A DNA stretch of 62,899 nt, the filler included, from Stramenopiles sp. TOSAG23-6 (taxonomy: Eukaryota), in the NCBI GenBank assembly GCA_900128565.1. It is 10 parts of 10 records of this genome, joined end to end, with 100 filler letters (N's around TTAATTAATTAA, not from the genome) between each part and the next. Parts side by side here need not be neighbours in the genome. Positions count along the whole stretch, not along the records: positions 1 to 8,420 come from LT636453.1; 9 more parts are not named here. One strand, 5' to 3'. Under the pieces are notes generated by a model. It saw nothing but the letters and a program-made list of their open reading frames with translations, was not told where the DNA came from and made no database searches. The translations under genes were made by a program, and so were the position numbers. Below, in pieces: positions 56-46,353 of the stretch (its first letter is position 1; each line of letters begins with the position of its first letter).

Positions 56-1363
56 GGTCACTCGTGATGCAGTGAAGAGAATGCGGCGTGTATATAATCC
101 GAAACGACAGCCATTAAAAAATATAGAACAGTTATTAAATCCTATGGGAATACACGAAGCTGCACAGAAAGGACGTTTAAAGCGTGTACGTTATCATTAT
201 TTTTTTGTCTAATTTTTTTTCGTACGAAATTTTGTACTTAACAAAAAACAAAAAAAATATTTTTTCACAATACGTGTTCAATGGTTATTAGAAGTTGGAG
301 GAATCCATCCAGATGTATGTTTTTTCATCATACATTTCAATTTTGTTTTATACAAATTTCGTACCTAACGGATTTTTTTTCTAAAATTATTTTTCACAGT
401 ACATTCACAAAATAAATATGGAATGACAGCACTTCACTTAGCAGCAGTGAAAAATCATGTAAAAATTTGTCAGTATTTAATTGATAATGGAGCTGATCCA
501 ACAATTGAAAATAATATTAAACAAACTGTATTTGATATGAAGCCTGGTCAAAAATATTTGAATAGTGTCTTAAATTCGAAAATGGATAAAATACGGAGAA
601 AAAAAGAAAGAAGAAAATTAGATGGTGAACAAAGGCTTCGTGATGCAATGTACGTCTTCACCATGAAATTCATTTTTTTTTTTTTTTCATTTTCGTAAAA
701 AAATGAAAAAAAATCTGTACCCTAACAAATTATGTTCTAAAATATTATTCATAATACATGATGCATCAGAAATTTCTTGAGCAGCAAAGGATAATGTACA
801 AAGGAACATCAATTGCAAAAGTTATAGTTAAAAAATTAAAGGAATTGGATCCAAATATTCCAAAATACGCGACATTTTCAGAGCCTCGTGTACGTTTTCA
901 TTCTGAATTTCAAGTTTATTTTTTTTTCGTACGAAATTTTGTACCTAACAAATTTCGAATTTAATTTCTTTTTACAATACATGTACTACCTACATCTGAG
1001 AAAGTTCAACCTATACCAAAAAGATATGATTTATGGGCGATGACAAAAAAACGCAACCTACCCAATTCTAAACTTCGCTCAATTTCAAAATTAAGACATG
1101 CTAGGAAGTTTTGTGGTGTTTTACAGCGAGATAAAAACTTTCATTTAGACACTTGGTGCAAAGAAGATGTATGTTTATTTTTTTCAATTTGGAATTTATT
1201 TTTTTTCATACGAAATTTCGTACCTAACAAAAACAAAAAAAAATATTTTTCCCCAATACATAACGGTCGTTTTGAACATTGGATGAGAGGATCAGGTTAT
1301 GCATCGAGGGCTTCTAAGCGTTCAGTTGAGAATACTGGTAAAACAGAGAGATTTTACTCATAA
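56..1363 (+). CDS. Ankyrin-repeat protein, 5'-partial; exons 56-185, 276-314, 405-649, 760-889, 983-1168, 1262-1363
   Basis: Joined exons read IHEAAQKGRLKR|VQWLLEVGGIHPD|SQNKYGMTALHLAAVKNHVKICQYLIDNGAD, a continuous ankyrin repeat, when the non-AG introns are removed. Confidence 0.85.
186..275 (+). other. Introner-like intron GT..GT (90 nt)
   Basis: cgt|gtacgtt...cacaatacgt|gtt; in-frame stop inside; flanked by CGTGT direct repeat so the boundary can slide. Confidence 0.75.
315..404 (+). other. Introner-like intron GT..AT (90 nt)
   Basis: gat|gtatgt...cacagtacat|tca caa aat; the AG at 398-399 would frameshift. Confidence 0.85.
650..759 (+). other. Introner-like intron GT..AT (110 nt)
   Basis: gca at|gtacgt...ataatacat|g atg cat joins ORF 423 to ORF 758. 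Confidence 0.8.
890..982 (+). other. Introner-like intron GT..AT (93 nt)
   Basis: cgt|gtacgttttc...tacaatacat|gta cta; full core motif; in-frame stop inside. Confidence 0.8.
1169..1261 (+). other. Introner-like intron GT..AT (93 nt, stop-free, 3n)
   Basis: gat|gtatgt...ccaatacat|aac ggt; full core motif. Confidence 0.8.
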
Positions 1364-2122: not shown

Positions 2123-3804
2123 GAAGAAGAAAATCTGACTTGCTCAAAATAGTTTTTGTTTCATTGACGATAATACCCGAAACCATTTATATGGAAAGGT
2201 ATAATTTTGAGAAATAACAAATTATTATGATGTAAGTCAGGAATATATTACTTTTGATCAGTCCAAAAAGAATGTTTGTGATATCNTGGNAANAANGTTN
2301 GTAATTAATGCTGTACGAATTGGATTTCAAACCATTTTTTACATACTTTAACCATTAGGTACAAAAATTTGGTATGGAATCAACTATTCTAGTATGCATC
2401 TGTGAAATGTGGTGTTTGTGTATTGTGTATAATTATCAGTGAATTTATATGTGATTTAATAAATCTTTTTGAATTTGTACAAATTAGTGCACATTTTTTA
2501 CGAAATAACATAAATTTTTTTGGGATAATAATTTTGGCTGCCGGATGCCACGTGTCAGAATATAAGGTAGCAATATGCAATATGCTACCTATTCAGCGAA
2601 CGGAATTTTTCAATCTCGATTATCTGCATCGAGTACTTGTGAGTCGTCAAGCCAATCAAATACAAAGGTTATTGGAAGTTTTTGTAAGAATATGGACTCC
2701 AATCTCAACGTTGATACTTCACTGCCACAAAAGTCACAGGCTTGTGCTGCAACAGTTATTGGGGTACCTGTTGTAGTTGAAGGGCAAACAAGAAACGTGA
2801 AACCACGATTTTCGTGGAAAGTTATCTTGCTTCTCATCCTTTCGTTTTCGTTAGGTTGTATTTTTTCGGGGGGAGCAACATATTTCATCTTGGATAAAGA
2901 TTATGAAAATAGGATTCAAGATATAAGGAGTGAAAATAATCGTGGTGGAAACAATCCCTCTCCTGGTTACAACGGTCATCGTCACTCTCCTGGTTGCGGC
3001 TGTAATCAAGAACAGGGCTCTTCCGATCCTGAGGAAAATGTTGAAGGCTCTTCCGATCCTGATGAAAATGTTGGAAAAGGTAATGGTCTAAGTGCAAAGG
3101 ATAGTGGAGAAGAGGGATCTTCTAATCCTCTTGGAAATGTTGAAAAAGGTAGTGGTACAAGTATAAAGGATAGTAAAGAACAAGGTTCTTTTAATACTAA
3201 TGGAAGTGTTAAAAAAAAGAGAGGAAATTTCAGAGGAACAAATTTTGGTTTGCGTCAATGGGGGTGTCCTTGTGGAAATCACGGCCAAGGTGATTGCGAT
3301 AATGATAGTTTTTGCATTGAAGTCCCAAAGTAGCCTCCATTACAAACGCTTGGGCCTAAAATTTAGTAATTGTTGTAAGTCTTTGGTTTATTTTTGATGA
3401 GTTGAAGAAGAAAATCTGACTTGCTCAAAATAGTTTTTGTTTCATTGACGATAATACCCGAAACCATTTATATGGAAAGGTATAATTTTGAGAAATAACA
3501 AATTATTATGATGTAAGTCAGGAATATATTACTTTTGATCAGTCCAAAAAGAATGTTTGTGATATCAGTGGAAACAATGTTAGTATTAATGCTGTACGAA
3601 TTGGATTCCAAACCATTTTTTACTTACTTTAACCATTAGGTACAAAAATTTGGTATGGAATCCACTATTCTAGTATGCATCTGTGAAATGTGGTGTTTGT
3701 GTATTGTGTATGATTATGAGTGAATTTATATGTGATTTAATAAATATTGAATATTCAAATCTTTTTGAATTTGTACAAATTAGTGCACATTTTTTACGAA
3801 ATAT
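2123..3804. repeat. Duplicated downstream/intergenic block, ~2123-2507 and ~3404-3804; diverged third copy ~4575-4700
   Basis: Near-identical sequence starting gaagaagaaaatctgacttgctcaaaatagtttttgtttcattgacg. Confidence 0.9.
2692..3333 (+). CDS. Single-pass membrane protein (tandem family copy 2)
   Basis: SWKVILLLILSFSLGCIFSGGATYF..KDYEN shared with copies 1 and 3; start chosen by alignment with copy 3. Confidence 0.7.
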   Translation: MDSNLNVDTSLPQKSQACAATVIGVPVVVEGQTRNVKPRFSWKVILLLILSFSLGCIFSGGATYFILDKDYENRIQDIRSENNRGGNNPSPGYNGHRHSPGCGCNQEQGSSDPEENVEGSSDPDENVGKGNGLSAKDSGEEGSSNPLGNVEKGSGTSIKDSKEQGSFNTNGSVKKKRGNFRGTNFGLRQWGCPCGNHGQGDCDNDSFCIEVPK

Positions 3805-4003
3805 CATTTTTGGGAATTTGTTCCAACTTCCAAGTTCCCAGAATTTTCAAGCAACAGTGGTGCCACGTGTCCGTCGGTGTCACGAATATTACCTCTAAAA
3901 AAAATTATAGATTCAGCATTTTTTTTGTCGTTCGTTGTGGTGCCATAGCTACGTGCACGAGAAGGAGTTAGACCAATCAAATTTAAATTTTTTTTGTAAT
4001 AAT

Positions 4004-4540
4004 ATGGAGACCAATCTCAAAGTTGATACTTTGCTGCCACAGAAGACACAGGCTTCTGTTGCAATAGATACTGCGCCACCTAGAATGACAGAAACAGTAG
4101 TTGTAGGGAAAACAAGAACTCTGGAACCACACCTTTCATGGAAATTTATCTTGCTTCTCATCCTTTCGTTTTCGTTAGGTTGTATTCTTGCCGGGGGAGC
4201 AACATATTTTGTCTTGGATAAAGATTATGAAAACAAACTTTATGAATTGAAGTTAGAGAATGCAATAAATCGCGGTGGCTCTTCAGGTTGTGGCTGTGGC
4301 TCTCCTGACTGCGGGGATAACAACTGCGATGAGGAGGATTCTTCTGGCGTTGGCCCTTCAGGTTGTGACTGTGGCTCTCCTGATTGCGGGAGGGATAAGA
4401 AGGATGAAAGTGTAGCGCCTGATGTAGTGCCTGATGGTAGTAAAAGTGTAGAGCCTGATGGTGGTAAAAGTGTAGCGCCTGATAGTAATAAAAGTGGAGA
4501 GGATGCTGGTAATAAAAGTGTAGCGCCTGGTCGTCCGTGA
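4004..4540 (+). CDS. Single-pass membrane protein (tandem family copy 3)
   Basis: Same TM block; GCxCGSPDCG twice and KSVAPD repeats. Confidence 0.7.
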   Translation: METNLKVDTLLPQKTQASVAIDTAPPRMTETVVVGKTRTLEPHLSWKFILLLILSFSLGCILAGGATYFVLDKDYENKLYELKLENAINRGGSSGCGCGSPDCGDNNCDEEDSSGVGPSGCDCGSPDCGRDKKDESVAPDVVPDGSKSVEPDGGKSVAPDSNKSGEDAGNKSVAPGRP

Positions 4541-8420: not shown

Positions 8421-8520
8421 NNNNNNNNNNNNNNNNNNNNNNNNNNNNNNNNNNNNNNNNNNNNTTAATTAATTAANNNNNNNNNNNNNNNNNNNNNNNN
8501 NNNNNNNNNNNNNNNNNNNN
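8421..8520. other. Artificial contig linker; also at 16934-17033, 25421-25520, 33905-34004, 42380-42479, 50853-50952, 59320-59419, 60514-60613, 61707-61806
   Basis: Identical 100-nt N-padded TTAATTAATTAA six-frame stop; contig lengths decrease monotonically (>=8420, 8413, 8387, 8384, 8375, 8373, 8367, 1094, 1093, 1093). Confidence 0.97.
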
Positions 8521-17631: not shown

Positions 17632-17741
17632 CTGTATTTTGGAAAAATATTTCAAAAAAAATCTAAAAAAAATTGTTAGGTATAAAATTTCGTACGAAAA
17701 AAAAATCGATTTTTTTGTTAAAAAAAAAAAATAAAACATCC
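17632..17741 (-). other. Introner-like element at a chimeric MUT/PH junction (GG..AG)
   Basis: cca t|ggatgtttt...aaaatacag|; the flanking exons belong to different proteins. Confidence 0.65.
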
Positions 17742-18816
17742 ATGGATCTTGCTCAGTCAAGGAATACCCTGATGTTTGACAATGTGTTCTTAATAGCCAA
17801 CTTTTTTCATTTTTTGCACCAAATCGATCACGTGTTATTTCAGCCCATAATTCTCTAGCAGCACGCATTTTAGCAACTTCCATATAAAAATTCATACCAA
17901 TTCCCCAAAAGAATGAGAGTCTTGGTGCAACGTCATCTACCTGGAGCCCAGCAGCTTCAGCACATTTAAGGTATTCAATTCCATCTGCCAATGTGAATCC
18001 AAGTTCCAATTTATTATCAGCACCTGCTTCTTGCATATGGTAACCGGAAATTGAAATGGAGTTATATTTTGGCATATGTGTTGCTGTATAACCCATTATA
18101 TCCTGAATAATTCGAAGGGAAGGTTTTGGATGATAAATATACGTATTTCGTACCATAAATTCTTTAAGAATATCATTTTGAATTGTACCTGCCAATAAAC
18201 TACGATCAACGCCTTGTTCTTCACCAGCTACTATATACATAGCAAGTACTGGAAGAACCGCACCGTTCATGGTCATAGACACAGACATCTTCTCGAGAGG
18301 AATTCCTTCAAAGAGAATTTTCATATCTTCCACGGTATCAATAGCCACACCTGCCATACCAACATCTCCAACAACGCGCGGGTGGTCACTATCATATCCA
18401 CGATGTGTAGCTAAATCAAATGCTACACTTAGACCCTGCTGTCCGGCTGCTACATTTTTTCTGTAGAAAGCATTAGAAGCTTCTGCAGTAGAAAACCCCG
18501 CATATTGACGAATAGTCCATGGCCGTGCAGTATACATTGTAGCATAAGGACCACGGGTATACGGATAAGAGCCAGGAGGTGCAGGATCTTCTAAATGTTT
18601 AGTATCAGCTGCGGTATATATCGGTTTTATTGTGATATTTTCAGGTGTGGTCCATAAAAGTGATTTTGGATCTTTTCCTCGGAGCTCCTTTTTTGCCTTT
18701 GCTTCCCATTCTTCGGGAAATTTCACAGTAGAGCTACTATGTCTGAGATGCCTAATTGGTGATGTAATGTATCCATGAATGAGTGAAGGCAAATTGCCTC
18801 TTCTGACATTCAACAT
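17742..18816 (-). CDS. MUT: Methylmalonyl-CoA mutase, N-terminal part only
   Basis: [64 protein letters not shown]. Confidence 0.95.
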
Positions 18817-19066
18817 TGTCACCCGTATACAAACAACACAATATCTATCTCTCTCCTCCAGGGGTCAATATTTTTCGGAATTTGTGTTTCGTGGTGGTGT
18901 CATTTTTGTCAAAATGCGCTGCAGTCAAGTCAGTCCGAAACAGATTGATTAGCTTACTACAAGTGCACTCTATCTTCTATTCTAATATAGCTTTTCTGTT
19001 GTAATTGGAGATTGTAGGGTTGTATATAGAACTAATTTCTATGGCTGAATAAATTCATCCTGATAA

Positions 19067-20767
19067 ATGACCCCAAATAGAGTTTCATGTTCTACATCAC
19101 ATTCATGTTTGCTGTGCGAGTTTGTGGCTTCTACGAGTGAGTTATTAAGAGCACATTACGAGAGTAGTAAGCATGGTTCTCTTGTTGCTAAACAGTGCCC
19201 ACACTGCGAGTATTCAAGTAAATTTGCGGGTACTTTACGACGCCATATAAAAAGTGTTCACACCCTAGAAAATCCTTTTAAATGTGAGCATTGTGATTAT
19301 GCAAGTTCACGTATTGGAACACTGCGTATGCATATACGAAAGAAACATCCGTTGTTAGTAAACACTGCTGAAACTGGATTAAAATGTTTACCAGTTTCCT
19401 CTAGAAGTCAAGAAAGCATCACTTTTTCAGCGGATGGTTATACGACTGCTGCTTCTGTATTCAATCAAAATCAACCTATGGATTGCTTAAGTGACGATAC
19501 ATCTTCGAAAAATAGATTCAAAACGAAAATGTTATTTCCTAAAACTCTAATTTTAGGAGAAATGGACTTCAGTTTTTCTCTGTCACTTATGAATAGATAT
19601 TTCAATAATAATAATCCCCTTAGACATGGTGTTTTTGCTACATCATATATTAAAGCAGAAGATTTTGCATATACTCGAATTAAAAAAAAAATCAGGCAAA
19701 ATATTCGCGTATTAAAAAAGCGTGGTGCTTTTGTACAACATGTACGTCTTCACAATATGAACGTATGAATTTTTTTTTCATAGGAAATTTCGTACCTAAC
19801 GATGTTTTCATGATTTCGTGTTTTTTTCACAATACATGGCGTTGATGCAAGAAATATTGCTGGTACATTTCATTGGGAAAATGCGTACAAACATGACGTA
19901 GTTGGCTTTGAAAAATCTGCTGAAAGTAATTTCATTGGTCAATTGAAGGAAAATCCACATAAAAAGAGGAAAATTGAAATTTCTTCGACAGATAAAAAGA
20001 GGAAAATTGAAATTTCTTCGACAGATCAACAAAATGTTGACCAAGGCGACAAACAAAATCAAAGTATACAAAAAATGGTAGGAATAGCAGAAAATATAAC
20101 ATTTGATGGCTGTACTAACCCTACAAATCCTGCAAAGCATATAGAGCATTCTGTACATACCAATGAAAGCAGAATATTTCAGTTTGATTTAGATATTATT
20201 GCATTTTGCTTTCCTAGATTTAGTACTATTACAGGGATTTGTTCAGAAAACTCTGATCTTCTTGGAAAGTTTTTTTCAAGTGCTCTTGATGTATTGTCTC
20301 CTTCCGTATGTTTTTATTATCAATTTCAATTTCAATTTTTTTTTTTTTCCAAAACATTCAAAAATTTCGTGTACCTAACGTTTTTTTNATTCTAAAAATA
20401 TTTTTTCTCAATATATGGGACCATAGCGATTATGTTACATGTTTGTATAATAGATGGTGTTTCTGAAGACCAATATAATGCATGGGGTGTTGACGAGATA
20501 GCTAATAGTGTAGGTTTGAAAAGAGTTGCTGCTCTTGAATGTCGTTTTCGGCACAATACACAAATTCGAAATTCGAAATGTGGTACAAATTTAATTTCAA
20601 ATTTGTCAAATGCCACCCCTCATGGTAAGAAGAATACTTCAACGAAGTCTCATAATGATAAAGTAAAACATGTTGTAGAAGATTTTCCTCAATATCAACC
20701 AAGAGCTCGTGATGGGAGATCCTTTTCCCCTGACAAAGCGATACTTCATGTATTAAAGAGAAAATAA
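19067..20767 (+). CDS. C2H2 zinc-finger protein; exons 19067-19741, 19838-20305, 20417-20767
   Basis: CPHCEY...LRRHIKSVH and CEHCDY...LRMHIRKKH; frames join across two GT..AT introns. Confidence 0.8.
19742..19837 (+). other. Introner-like intron GT..AT (96 nt)
   Basis: cat|gtacgtctt...cacaatacat|ggc gtt; an alternative in-frame donor exists near 19763. Confidence 0.75.
20306..20416 (+). other. Introner-like intron GT..AT (111 nt)
   Basis: tcc|gtatgtttt...ctcaatatat|ggg acc; alternative in-frame donor at 20291. Confidence 0.7.
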
Positions 20768-43839: not shown

Positions 43840-46353
43840 ATGCGTGCAATTATTCTCTACATTGTGATTATTCTGACCCTAGTTGATAGTTCACAATGTG
43901 CAAGGACATCTTGCAAAATACGTGCTCTCTCAAATTGGTTCAAGGAGTATCGAACAGAGAGACAAAAAATGAAAAGGTTGAAATTGAAAAAAACAGCGTT
44001 GAAAGATGCAGAGGAAAAAAGTGGACATAATTTTTTCAACGAATGGCCTTCGTTCCAGTATGATAAAGATATTTGCCTAGCTCTTGTGGCTACTGATGGA
44101 ATGTCAATTCAATATATCATGGATTCCCGCTTAAGAAATGACTTTGATGTTGTTTTGACTGCAGTGCATAACAACGGGTATGTTTTGGATTTGCTCGAGT
44201 TTTATTACAAAATGAACAGAACTGTGGTTTCAACTGCGGTTAAACAAAATGGCCGTGCACTTTCTTATGCACATCCCACATTTAAACGTGATAAACGTAT
44301 CGTTCTCTTGGCACTACAATCTGATCCAGTTGCAATCACAGCTGTGAGTCCTAGACTTTTTGCAGACCNTGCACGTTTTATTTTTTTTCAATTTTGAATT
44401 TATTTTTCTTACGAAATTTCGTACCTAACGATTTTTTTTACTAAAAAAATATTTTTCCAAAATACATGAAATCATCATTGCTTTTCTACAATCTGCGAAA
44501 AAAATATTGCCAATCCATCAAATTTCTTTTCTATTAAAGTATCATCTACAATGTTTTGTATCTATCGAATTGAGAAATAATAAAGAATTTGTTTTACAAA
44601 TGGTCACTATACACCCATTTGCAATCCAATTGGCTTCAGAAACATTACAAACAGATTATGAAATTTCTATTTTTTTTTCAATTTTTTTTATTTTTTTTTC
44701 ATAGTAAATTTTGTACCTAACAATTTTTCAAAATTTTTTTTTGAAATATTTTTTCAAAATACATGAAATTTGTTTACTTGCCGTATCAAATGATTTGTAT
44801 CCCGGTAATCCTCGTAGCATAATAAATCAACTTCCTGATGACTTGAAAAATAATAAAAATATTATAATTGCTGCTCTACGTAATGATGGAAATTATATAG
44901 AATTTATAGATAATACATTCAAAAATAATGTAGACATTTTGACTACAGCTGTTCAACAAAATGGATGTAGTATTGAGTATATGTCTGAATATTGGCGAAA
45001 TAATTTACATTTAGGAATTATTGCAGTGAATCAAAGTATGTTTTCAAAACTTTTAAAAAACTTTCAAAAAAAAAAAATTTTAATTTTTTTTCATACGAAA
45101 TTTCGTACCTAACAAAATTTTAAAAAAATATATTTTTTTTCACAATACATATGGAATTGCTTTAGAATTTTTGTCTTTACGATTACGAAAGAATCGAAAT
45201 GTTGTCTTACAAGCATTGAAATCGAATGGTATGGCCATACAATATGCAGATATACAATATAGATATGATGCTAAAATGGTGTTGGAAGCCGTACGATCAA
45301 ATGGTAAGGCAATACAATTTTTATGTGTGAATAATTTTCTAAACCCTAACCCTAACGAAAATTTTGTACCTCGTTTTCTCTATAAGTTAAAAATTGTTGC
45401 TGTTTCCAATGATGCTCAGGCATTTGATTATATTGCATTACACTATAGGCGGAATAAACATTTTGTGTTGACTACTCTTTATAATAATATCAAAGTGTTT
45501 GATTACATTAGTAATGATTGTATGTTAATGATGAAAATGATCAAAAAAACATTTCAAACTTTTTTTTTTTTCAAATTTTTTTTTTTTTTCAAATTTTTTT
45601 TCAAACTTTTTTTTGTTTATTCACTAACAATTTTTTTTTTTTTTTTTTCAAATATTTCTTCACAATACTGTACTCCAAGATATCTCATTTATGAAAAAGG
45701 TCATTCAAATGTATCCACAATTATTAAATAAATGTTCTCCCAATCCATTACAACTACAAAATGGTATTGTATACAAAACATTGAAACTAAATGGTCTAGT
45801 CATGAAATCTCTTGGTCATAAATACAAATATGATAGTATTGCTATAGAAATTGCATTAAAAAATAACGGAAATGCATTACAATTTTTACCCTATGAGTTA
45901 CGAAATTCTCCAAATATTGTCGTTTTAGCTGTTACACAAAATGGATTGGCCTTGAAGTATGGATCATTTGAAGTTAAATCAAATAAGCAAATTTGTTATA
46001 TAGCAACAAAGAATACACCAGATGCTTTTCATCATATTTCTAATACGTTTTAGTTTTTTCAAATTTTTTTTCAAATTTTTTTTTATACGAAATTTCGTAC
46101 CTAACAAACAAAAGTTTAAAAAAAAAAAATATTTGTTCACAATATATTTTTGTATCAAAGACGAATAATAAAAAAATATACTCAATTAAAAAAAAATCAA
46201 CATTTTGCATTATTACAACTGATACAAAAAAAACACTTGAATTATTTAGGTAAAAATATATTTCGATTTAATAATGAAATATATACTAAAAACCCATTTC
46301 GCGATAAAATGCTGAGTGATGAAGCACGGAAATTTATTCTGGGCATAAGTTAG
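43840..46353 (+). CDS. DUF4116-repeat protein with signal-like N-terminus; exons 43840-44370, 44468-44659, 44765-45035, 45151-45519, 45671-46042, 46148-46353
   Basis: Repeated AVxxNGxAL...L+xD; six ORFs join in frame across five non-AG introns. Confidence 0.8.
44371..44467 (+). other. Introner-like intron GC..AT (97 nt)
   Basis: cNt|gcacgtttt...caaaatacat|gaa atc. Confidence 0.75.
44660..44764 (+). other. Introner-like intron GA..AT (105 nt), boundary ambiguous
   Basis: ATGAAATTT direct repeat at both ends; no GT or GC donor. Confidence 0.6.
45036..45150 (+). other. Introner-like intron GT..AT (115 nt)
   Basis: caa a|gtatgt...cacaatacat|at gga rebuilds the repeat-consensus QNG. Confidence 0.9.
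45520..45670 (+). other. Intron GT..TG (151 nt)
   Basis: gat t|gtatgt...cactaac...cacaatactg|ta ctc caa gat. Confidence 0.7.
46043..46147 (+). other. Introner-like intron AT..AT (105 nt)
   Basis: tct a|atacgttt...cacaatatat|tt ttg. Confidence 0.6.

Follow-up and report, generated by a model that had tools for sequence, protein, structure and literature searches.

Background

That introns of the U2 type end in AG is an almost universal rule, and the way in which the second catalytic step of splicing locates the 3' splice site remains a matter of argument, based on a small number of model organisms. Yeast normally takes the first suitable YAG past the branch point. Introns of the U12 type are known to have non-AG ends and to be insensitive to AG. 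Introners, for their part, are transposon-derived intron families known from Micromonas, Aureococcus, dinoflagellates and many marine protists.

Several departures from the AG rule have been described. Human U2 introns can use TG as an alternative 3' splice site, rarely, in 36 genes and beside a normal AG (PMC2374985). The U2-type spliceosome of the tunicate Fritillaria borealis processes non-AG introns, reportedly aided by extra, divergent U2AF paralogs (PMC13326754). Non-AG ends also occur in the nonconventional introns of euglenids and diplonemids, whose two ends are complementary and may in this way draw the borders to each other (PMC12621601). For introners, the accepted 3' ends listed are AG and AC only (PMC12130899). 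These statements, like the comparisons drawn from the same sources below, hold for the accessible portions of each source. In the literature that we searched, we found neither a GT-AT intron family nor the branch box GTACCTAAC described.

Here we analyse a stretch of 62.9 kb of DNA from Stramenopiles sp. TOSAG23-6 (the window) around one intron of an ankyrin gene, at 315-404 (intron B). An initial annotation, made from the sequence, had proposed that a textbook CAG acceptor is ignored in this intron, five bases upstream of an AT site. Intron B offers a CAG and a CAT of the type found in its relatives 5 nt apart. With its 5' and branch signals of textbook form, it lends itself directly to testing the last base against the box that surrounds it.

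Results

The window and the site

The window has about 35% G+C and consists of seven pieces of ~8.4 kb and three of ~1.1 kb. Spacers (44 N, TTAATTAATTAA, 44 N) stand at 8421-8520 and at nine further places, and adjoining pieces are not necessarily neighbours in the genome. Single N are also scattered through the window, so base calling is imperfect. Neither snRNA nor tRNA genes were found within it. The ankyrin gene is laid out in Table 1. In the stretch 2300-4540, two paralogous genes lie in tandem (ORFs 2566-3333 and 3911-4540); their upstream stretches, around 2362 and 3643, are near-identical.

Table 1. Features of the ankyrin gene and of its introns B and D (positions along the window)
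Feature	Coordinates	Strand	Remarks
Ankyrin gene exons	54-185, 276-314, 405-649, 760-889, 983-1168, 1262 onward	+	joined, one open frame with its stop near 1360
Exon 2	276-314	+	13 codons, ends with the complete codon GAT; joins exon 1 (54-185) to exon 3; part of the first ankyrin repeat in ungapped alignments
Intron B	315-404	+	90 nt; family copy with GTATGT start and ...CACAGTACAT end; focus of the analysis
5' splice site GTATGT of intron B	315-320	+	family consensus GTAYGT
Central palindrome of the family, degenerate copy in intron B	350-364	+	CGTACGAAATTTYGTAC in other copies
Branch-site box GTACCTAAC of intron B	361-369	+	
Cryptic CAG	397-399	+	within the conserved AATAC box, G399 is a change private to intron B
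Terminal AT of intron B	403-404	+	frame-preserving 3' end
Exon 3	405-649	+	a full ankyrin repeat spans residues 5-37 (PF00023 positions 1-33 of 33, E 7e-10)
Next CAG downstream of intron B	427-429	+	out of frame, offset +25, 3 open codons
Sister intron D, same gene	890-982	+	GTACGT...ACAATACAT; the one copy with RNA-library evidence for an AT end

Read directly, positions 391-407 are ttttcacagtacat|tca, in exact agreement with the ttttcacAGtacAT|tca quoted in the initial annotation. Base by base these are t391-t394, c395, a396, C397 A398 G399, t400 a401 c402, A403 T404 and, after the boundary, tca at 405-407. If the branch nucleotide within GTACCTAAC follows the yeast-type UACUAAC rule, as we assume, the branch A of intron B is presumably 368, upstream of G399 by 31 nt and of T404 by 36 nt.

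Reading frame and homology at the competing acceptors

Upstream of intron B the frame is open over 34 codons and reaches the donor in phase 0. When acceptors are compared by coordinates, a cut after T404 is followed by 97 open codons, against 8 for G399, which lengthens the exon by 5 nt, and 3 for G429. In conceptual splicing the 404 model stays open to the stop codon of the gene, and the 399, 429 and unspliced models all run into stops. It had been claimed that the CAG at 397-399 adds 5 nt and breaks the frame, and that the next AG (428-429) is out of frame as well; both statements are borne out, and the sole frame-preserving 3' boundary indeed lies after T404, at the AT.

Homology covers the same boundary. 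The 404 product aligns with stored ankyrin proteins from residue ~32-36 to residue 87-98, over the junctions 44|45 and 57|58, and with one of them (P0005) as 63 residues on 63 without a gap, whereas the 399 model retains only a 29-residue match that stops at the junction. No transcript-derived product of this gene was found: exon 3 gave 7 generic ankyrin matches among longer proteins, the best with 53% identity, and zero matches among proteins of near length, and no correct product of the gene was found in the protein collection searched. From frame and homology, the productive acceptor of intron B is almost surely 404. Since the AT at 313-314 repeats the AT at 403-404, cuts placed 1 or 2 nt further left would give an identical mRNA.

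The frame would also be kept by an AT..AG intron running from 313 to 399. Such a compensating donor, 2 nt to the left, together with an acceptor 5 nt to the left, adds 3 nt to the sum of the exons, and the product, one residue longer, meets no stop on direct reading. We consider this reading very improbable. It ignores the GTATGT at 315, the donor common to all copies of the intron family described below, no other copy of which has an AG at this place; the 404 model already fits the ankyrin spacing without gaps; and an RNA-derived contig puts the cut of the sister intron D at GT.

An intron family with AT ends

Intron B is one of 19 complete copies of an introner-like family within the window, several others being cut by the spacers. 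The copies occur as introns of unrelated genes, encoding ankyrin, zinc-finger/BMT5-like, lectin-like, IQ-motif and other proteins, and each of the six introns in the ankyrin gene is a member. The family consensus begins with GTAYGT and a T-rich stretch (5' consensus GTACGTTT); the palindrome CGTACGAAATTTYGTAC then runs into the box GTACCTAAC, and an A/T-rich spacer of 34-44 nt leads to a terminal box, YMMAATAC plus two bases. At the donor, position 1 is G in 18 of the 19 copies, position 3 is A in all 19 and position 5 is G in 18. The branch box, near-invariant in the 19-copy alignment, occurs 33 times in the window where 7.2 occurrences are expected, and its distance to the 3' end varies between copies (34-44 nt). 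All these statistics describe the 62.9 kb window.

Of the 19 copies, 16 have AT as their last two bases; one (186-275) has GT, and two (17741-17632 and 50636-50538) have AG. The AT end noticed in intron B is the rule of the family and not a one-off. A frame test by coordinates on 20 rows, which fixes intron length modulo 3 and not the exact cut, places the longest downstream frame at the family 3' end in 15 of the 17 rows that end in AT or GT (rows B to P), and in 10 of these 15 passing copies (B, C, E, F, G, I, J, K, O and P) the first downstream AG is out of frame. Five of the 20 rows fail: the 13-codon exon of A does not discriminate; in V, an N stands three bases ahead of the donor; U is doubtful as a family copy; Q does not keep the frame; and R was entered one base off, a TAG one base upstream being the end that fits. 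Row R is the first of three successive family introns in a single gene (50636-50155, minus strand); it ends in TAG, the next two (K and L) end in CAT, and all three fit the frame. From these mixed ends in one gene, with fitting exon lengths, the same machinery seems to accept both AG and AT ends of the family. Two family members work with an AG end, so the CAG at 399 should be usable in principle.

Homology to known proteins fixed no junction to the base in the mutase, lectin and BMT5-like genes. The middle exon of the lectin gene matches legume lectins in the predicted frame, with no match in the flanking exons, and the BMT5-like domain is insufficiently contiguous over the intron at 19742-19837. 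The mutase ORF (17632-18864, minus strand) corresponds to residues 30-354 of human methylmalonyl-CoA mutase (MUT; E 3e-159). It runs up to a family copy that starts with GGATGT and finishes with CAG, after which the next exon is out of frame and not mutase-like; the C-terminal half of the mutase is absent from its piece of the window.

Other variants of the family signals were also seen. Donors at 46043, 40562, 44371, 17116, 17741 and 50260 read ATACGT, GCACGT, GCATGT, GGATGT or GTACAT, intron bases 1-2 changing while AYGT is kept. The terminal box is substituted in other copies to ATAT, TTAT, TCAT or CCAT. Copy P (17456-17354, minus strand) ends in ...TTATCCAT, and the AATAC box of the family is shifted to a place just past this end. 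The CCAT end alone agrees with the frame on either side; the CAT that lies 7 nt upstream and the TAG that lies 8 nt downstream are both out of frame. At 1-55, a copy truncated by the start of the window, with its upstream exon beyond the window, ends in ...CACAATAC plus TT; under the family register, TT would be its 3' end.

As for the kind of element involved, exon bases -2/-1 equal the last two intron bases in 9 of the 19 copies, and exon base -1 is T in 14. The ends of the family, complementary over ~4-6 nt, look like the short inverted repeat and two-base target duplication of a small DNA element, at a length too short to prove a mechanism. No autonomous element, no clear inverted repeat longer than ~4-6 nt and no presence/absence polymorphism was seen in the window, and a core 20-mer of the family gave 0 matches in metagenome_contigs.

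The family carries a GT with the U1/U6-complementary extension GTAYGT that marks a U2-type 5' splice site (GTATGT in intron B) and a branch box of the yUnAy, or UACUAAC-like, type. In place of the terminal AG stands AT, at 403-404 in intron B, in 16 of 19 copies overall, and at the end that the contig gives for intron D. We think, on these sequence signals, that the copies look like U2-type introns with a non-AG 3' end. If they were instead removed by the minor spliceosome, as U12-type introns, which tolerate varied 3' dinucleotides, the distance to the branch box would fix the site and an AG upstream of it would not matter; their 5' end is GTAYGTTTT, however, and not RTATCCTT, and the branch box stands at a variable 34-44 nt from the end and not at about 10-15 nt. 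We rejected the U12-type assignment on these two counts, the 5' box and the branch distance, and regard it as disfavoured to the point of being hardly credible.

RNA evidence

Exons 4-5 of the ankyrin gene are present in a polyA RNA library. A contig from a polyA seawater metatranscriptome (X4, record 21; 197 nt, 0 mismatches, 0 gaps; depth 2.9, one run) covers 810-888 and 982-1099, and intron D is absent from it. Its junction, 888|982, is equivalent to 889|983 because of one ambiguous T, and gives an intron GT...AT or, one base to the left, TG...CA; a cut after AATAC is ruled out by this contig. The contig could equally derive from an allele without the insertion, and the register of the family, that is, its exact 3' cut, is taken from this one copy and this one contig.

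For intron B itself, contigs from the seawater RNA runs X1, X2, X4 and X5 on positions 1-2285 include none that crosses 314|405 or is informative for base 399; in X2, the depth is 2.7 in the bin 309-385 and 1.0 in the bin 386-462, two bins for which no contig is listed. More generally, parts of the window were found only in seawater metatranscriptomes, in small shares, and near-identical contigs occur there.

A separate observation concerns the cores of the family introns (1-53, 894-955 and 1178-1233), for which summed word depths reach thousands in four seawater RNA libraries, with a maximum of ~26,000 in X1, against a depth of ~3 for exons of the same ankyrin gene. The cores are matched by hundreds of contigs with differing flanks. 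Possible causes are intron retention, stable excised introns, carry-over of DNA and a very high number of copies.

What may set the 3' cut

In the alignment of the 19 copies, intron B alone has G at the column of base 399, the other 18 having A (17) or T (1). It is also the sole row of 20 in which an AG lies more than 13 nt past the branch box and yet before the family 3' end, copies I and Q having an AG 10 and 13 nt after the box, respectively. The other copies lack an AG in the relevant zone, so intron B is the only natural test of AG scanning in the window.

It could be argued that this G is not real, but a base-call or assembly error, or else a rare allele, the true base being the A of the family, with no CAG at all. 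In favour of this, 17 of the 18 other copies have A, and the scattered single N, with a cluster at 2286-2300, point to a consensus of modest quality; base 399 itself, however, carries no mark of doubt, and the same box shows many real substitutions elsewhere, namely the four listed above. We consider an erroneous or rare G rather improbable.

Three candidates for what might hide or exclude the CAG, or guide the cut, were followed. The first was a structure covering 397-399. Folds of six copies gave no common structure, no helix over 397-399 and unpaired termini, with z-scores from -0.4 to -2.8, and the central palindrome of intron B forms no strong hairpin in its predicted fold; this candidate was dropped for want of a consistent structure. 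The second was a zone downstream of the branch box from which AG is excluded. Over the 19 copies, 3 AG are seen after the branch box where 8.9 are expected, and 7 in the 5' zone where 18.5 are expected. AG being equally scarce upstream, the zone was dropped as evidence; the depletion in the 3' part is no stronger than in the 5' part and gives no sign of selection against such AGs. Simple scanning for AT does not describe the cut either: between the branch box and the used site, the 19 copies contain 87 AT and 27 YAT, and the used AT is not the first. Nor is the cut accounted for by the spacing from the branch box, which ranges from 34 to 44 nt.

The third candidate was complementarity between the intron ends. 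The last six intron bases are complementary to the stretch from exon -2 to intron +4 at a mean of 4.53 of 6 positions, the best value among 25 offsets, and it falls at the used site. In intron B the value is 6 of 6 for an end at 404 and 3 of 6 for an end at 399, G399 standing opposite U318 as a U-G wobble in the end pairing. As all copies descend from one consensus, this complementarity is not independent evidence, and a role in splicing and a relic of the element would leave the same pattern.

Discussion

The explanation that we prefer brings these observations together as follows. Intron 315-404 belongs to a multi-copy, transposon-like ("introner"-type) family of short introns whose signals are a yeast-style 5' splice site GTAYGT, the branch box GTACCTAAC, and a conserved AATAC box with two further bases, mostly AT, behind it. 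A cut after T404, presumably by the spliceosome, would yield the productive ankyrin mRNA, and 404 would be the main site of intron B. The CAG at 397-399 is a copy-specific change of A to G inside the AATAC box. The 3' cut would then be placed by the position of the terminal box and not by the first AG past the branch point, the CAG being bypassed in the productive mRNA. The box may cooperate with the 5' end, exon -2 to intron +4 pairing with the last six intron bases, a pairing that G399 would keep by wobble. Taken as a whole (an introner-type family, a cut after T404 set by the terminal box, and a CAG at 399 that is largely bypassed), we give this explanation about an even chance of being correct in all its parts.

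The competitor that we take most seriously has the two sites used side by side. A substantial fraction of transcripts would be cut at the CAG (with 5 nt more of exon and a stop after 8 codons) and degraded, and the fraction cut at T404 would make the protein; the G would then be a mildly harmful or neutral recent mutation and would not speak for a special rule of site selection. In copies Q and R, AG does function as the family end, the CAG is preceded by a T run and stands 31 nt from the presumed branch A, a distance counted here as inside the used-site range of 34-44 nt, and a G unique among 19 copies is what a young change would look like. The gene is otherwise intact, on the other hand, with its exons 4-5 in a polyA RNA library, and the depletion of AG past the branch box is no greater than before it. 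We think that use of both sites is unlikely, if by no means negligible.

This bears on the conclusion of the initial annotation that the acceptor is not chosen by scanning for the first AG from the branch point. Its factual part, on frame and boundary, stands, and the conclusion fits the frame, the homology and the AT-ended contig of intron D. The bypass of the CAG is nevertheless something that we infer from frame and homology, since partial use of 399 followed by removal of the mRNA with its premature stop, or a miscalled A at 399, would leave the same picture in the DNA.

A bolder proposal can be made more tentatively. The major spliceosome of this marine eukaryote might routinely accept a YAU 3' splice site when a transposon-borne terminal box presents it. 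The box, or its pairing with the 5' end, would set the cut strictly enough for a well-placed CAG to be bypassed 5 nt upstream, in which case the family would carry its own 3' splice-site code. We hold this to be possible, with the chances against it. A practical consequence of AT-ended introns is that gene finders restricted to AG would break every gene that carries introns of this family.

How does the family compare with the systems described so far? Like introners (PMC12130899, 10.1101/2020.10.14.339549, PMC9860276), it consists of many near-identical short introns, without exception in sense orientation, in unrelated genes of an otherwise intron-poor, gene-dense genome, and it shares with them, as far as the accessible portions of these sources go, short complementary termini and a dinucleotide repeated at both borders. 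It is unlike them in its 3' end, AT in 16 of the 19 copies against the AG or AC given for introners in the available part of PMC12130899.

With the yeast-type U2 introns (GTATGT ... TACTAAC ... YAG), the family has near-identical 5' and branch signals in common; its 3' site lies 34-44 nt past the branch box and retains the pyrimidine, YAT replacing YAG. It is unlike them in intron B, where the productive cut falls at a YAT and a CAG precedes this site by 5 nt.

The human TG sites also show a non-AG dinucleotide as the 3' end of U2-dependent introns, but are described as rare alternatives in the portion of the source at hand, whereas here the non-AG end is a family-wide rule (PMC2374985). The nonconventional introns of euglenids and diplonemids, as presented in the accessible part of PMC12621601, have no conserved GT or branch signals and depend on extensive base pairing. 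We rejected membership in that class, as GTAYGT and the branch box are conserved here and the folds of six copies leave the ends unpaired.

Fritillaria borealis offers a precedent, on the scale of a whole genome, for a major spliceosome dealing with non-AG 3' ends, but its 5' ends are non-canonical too, GT/AG introns making up <10%, according to the available text of PMC13326754. In contrast, the family described here, in a compact and gene-dense genome, combines a textbook 5' site with a textbook branch box, and the last base alone departs, T standing for G.
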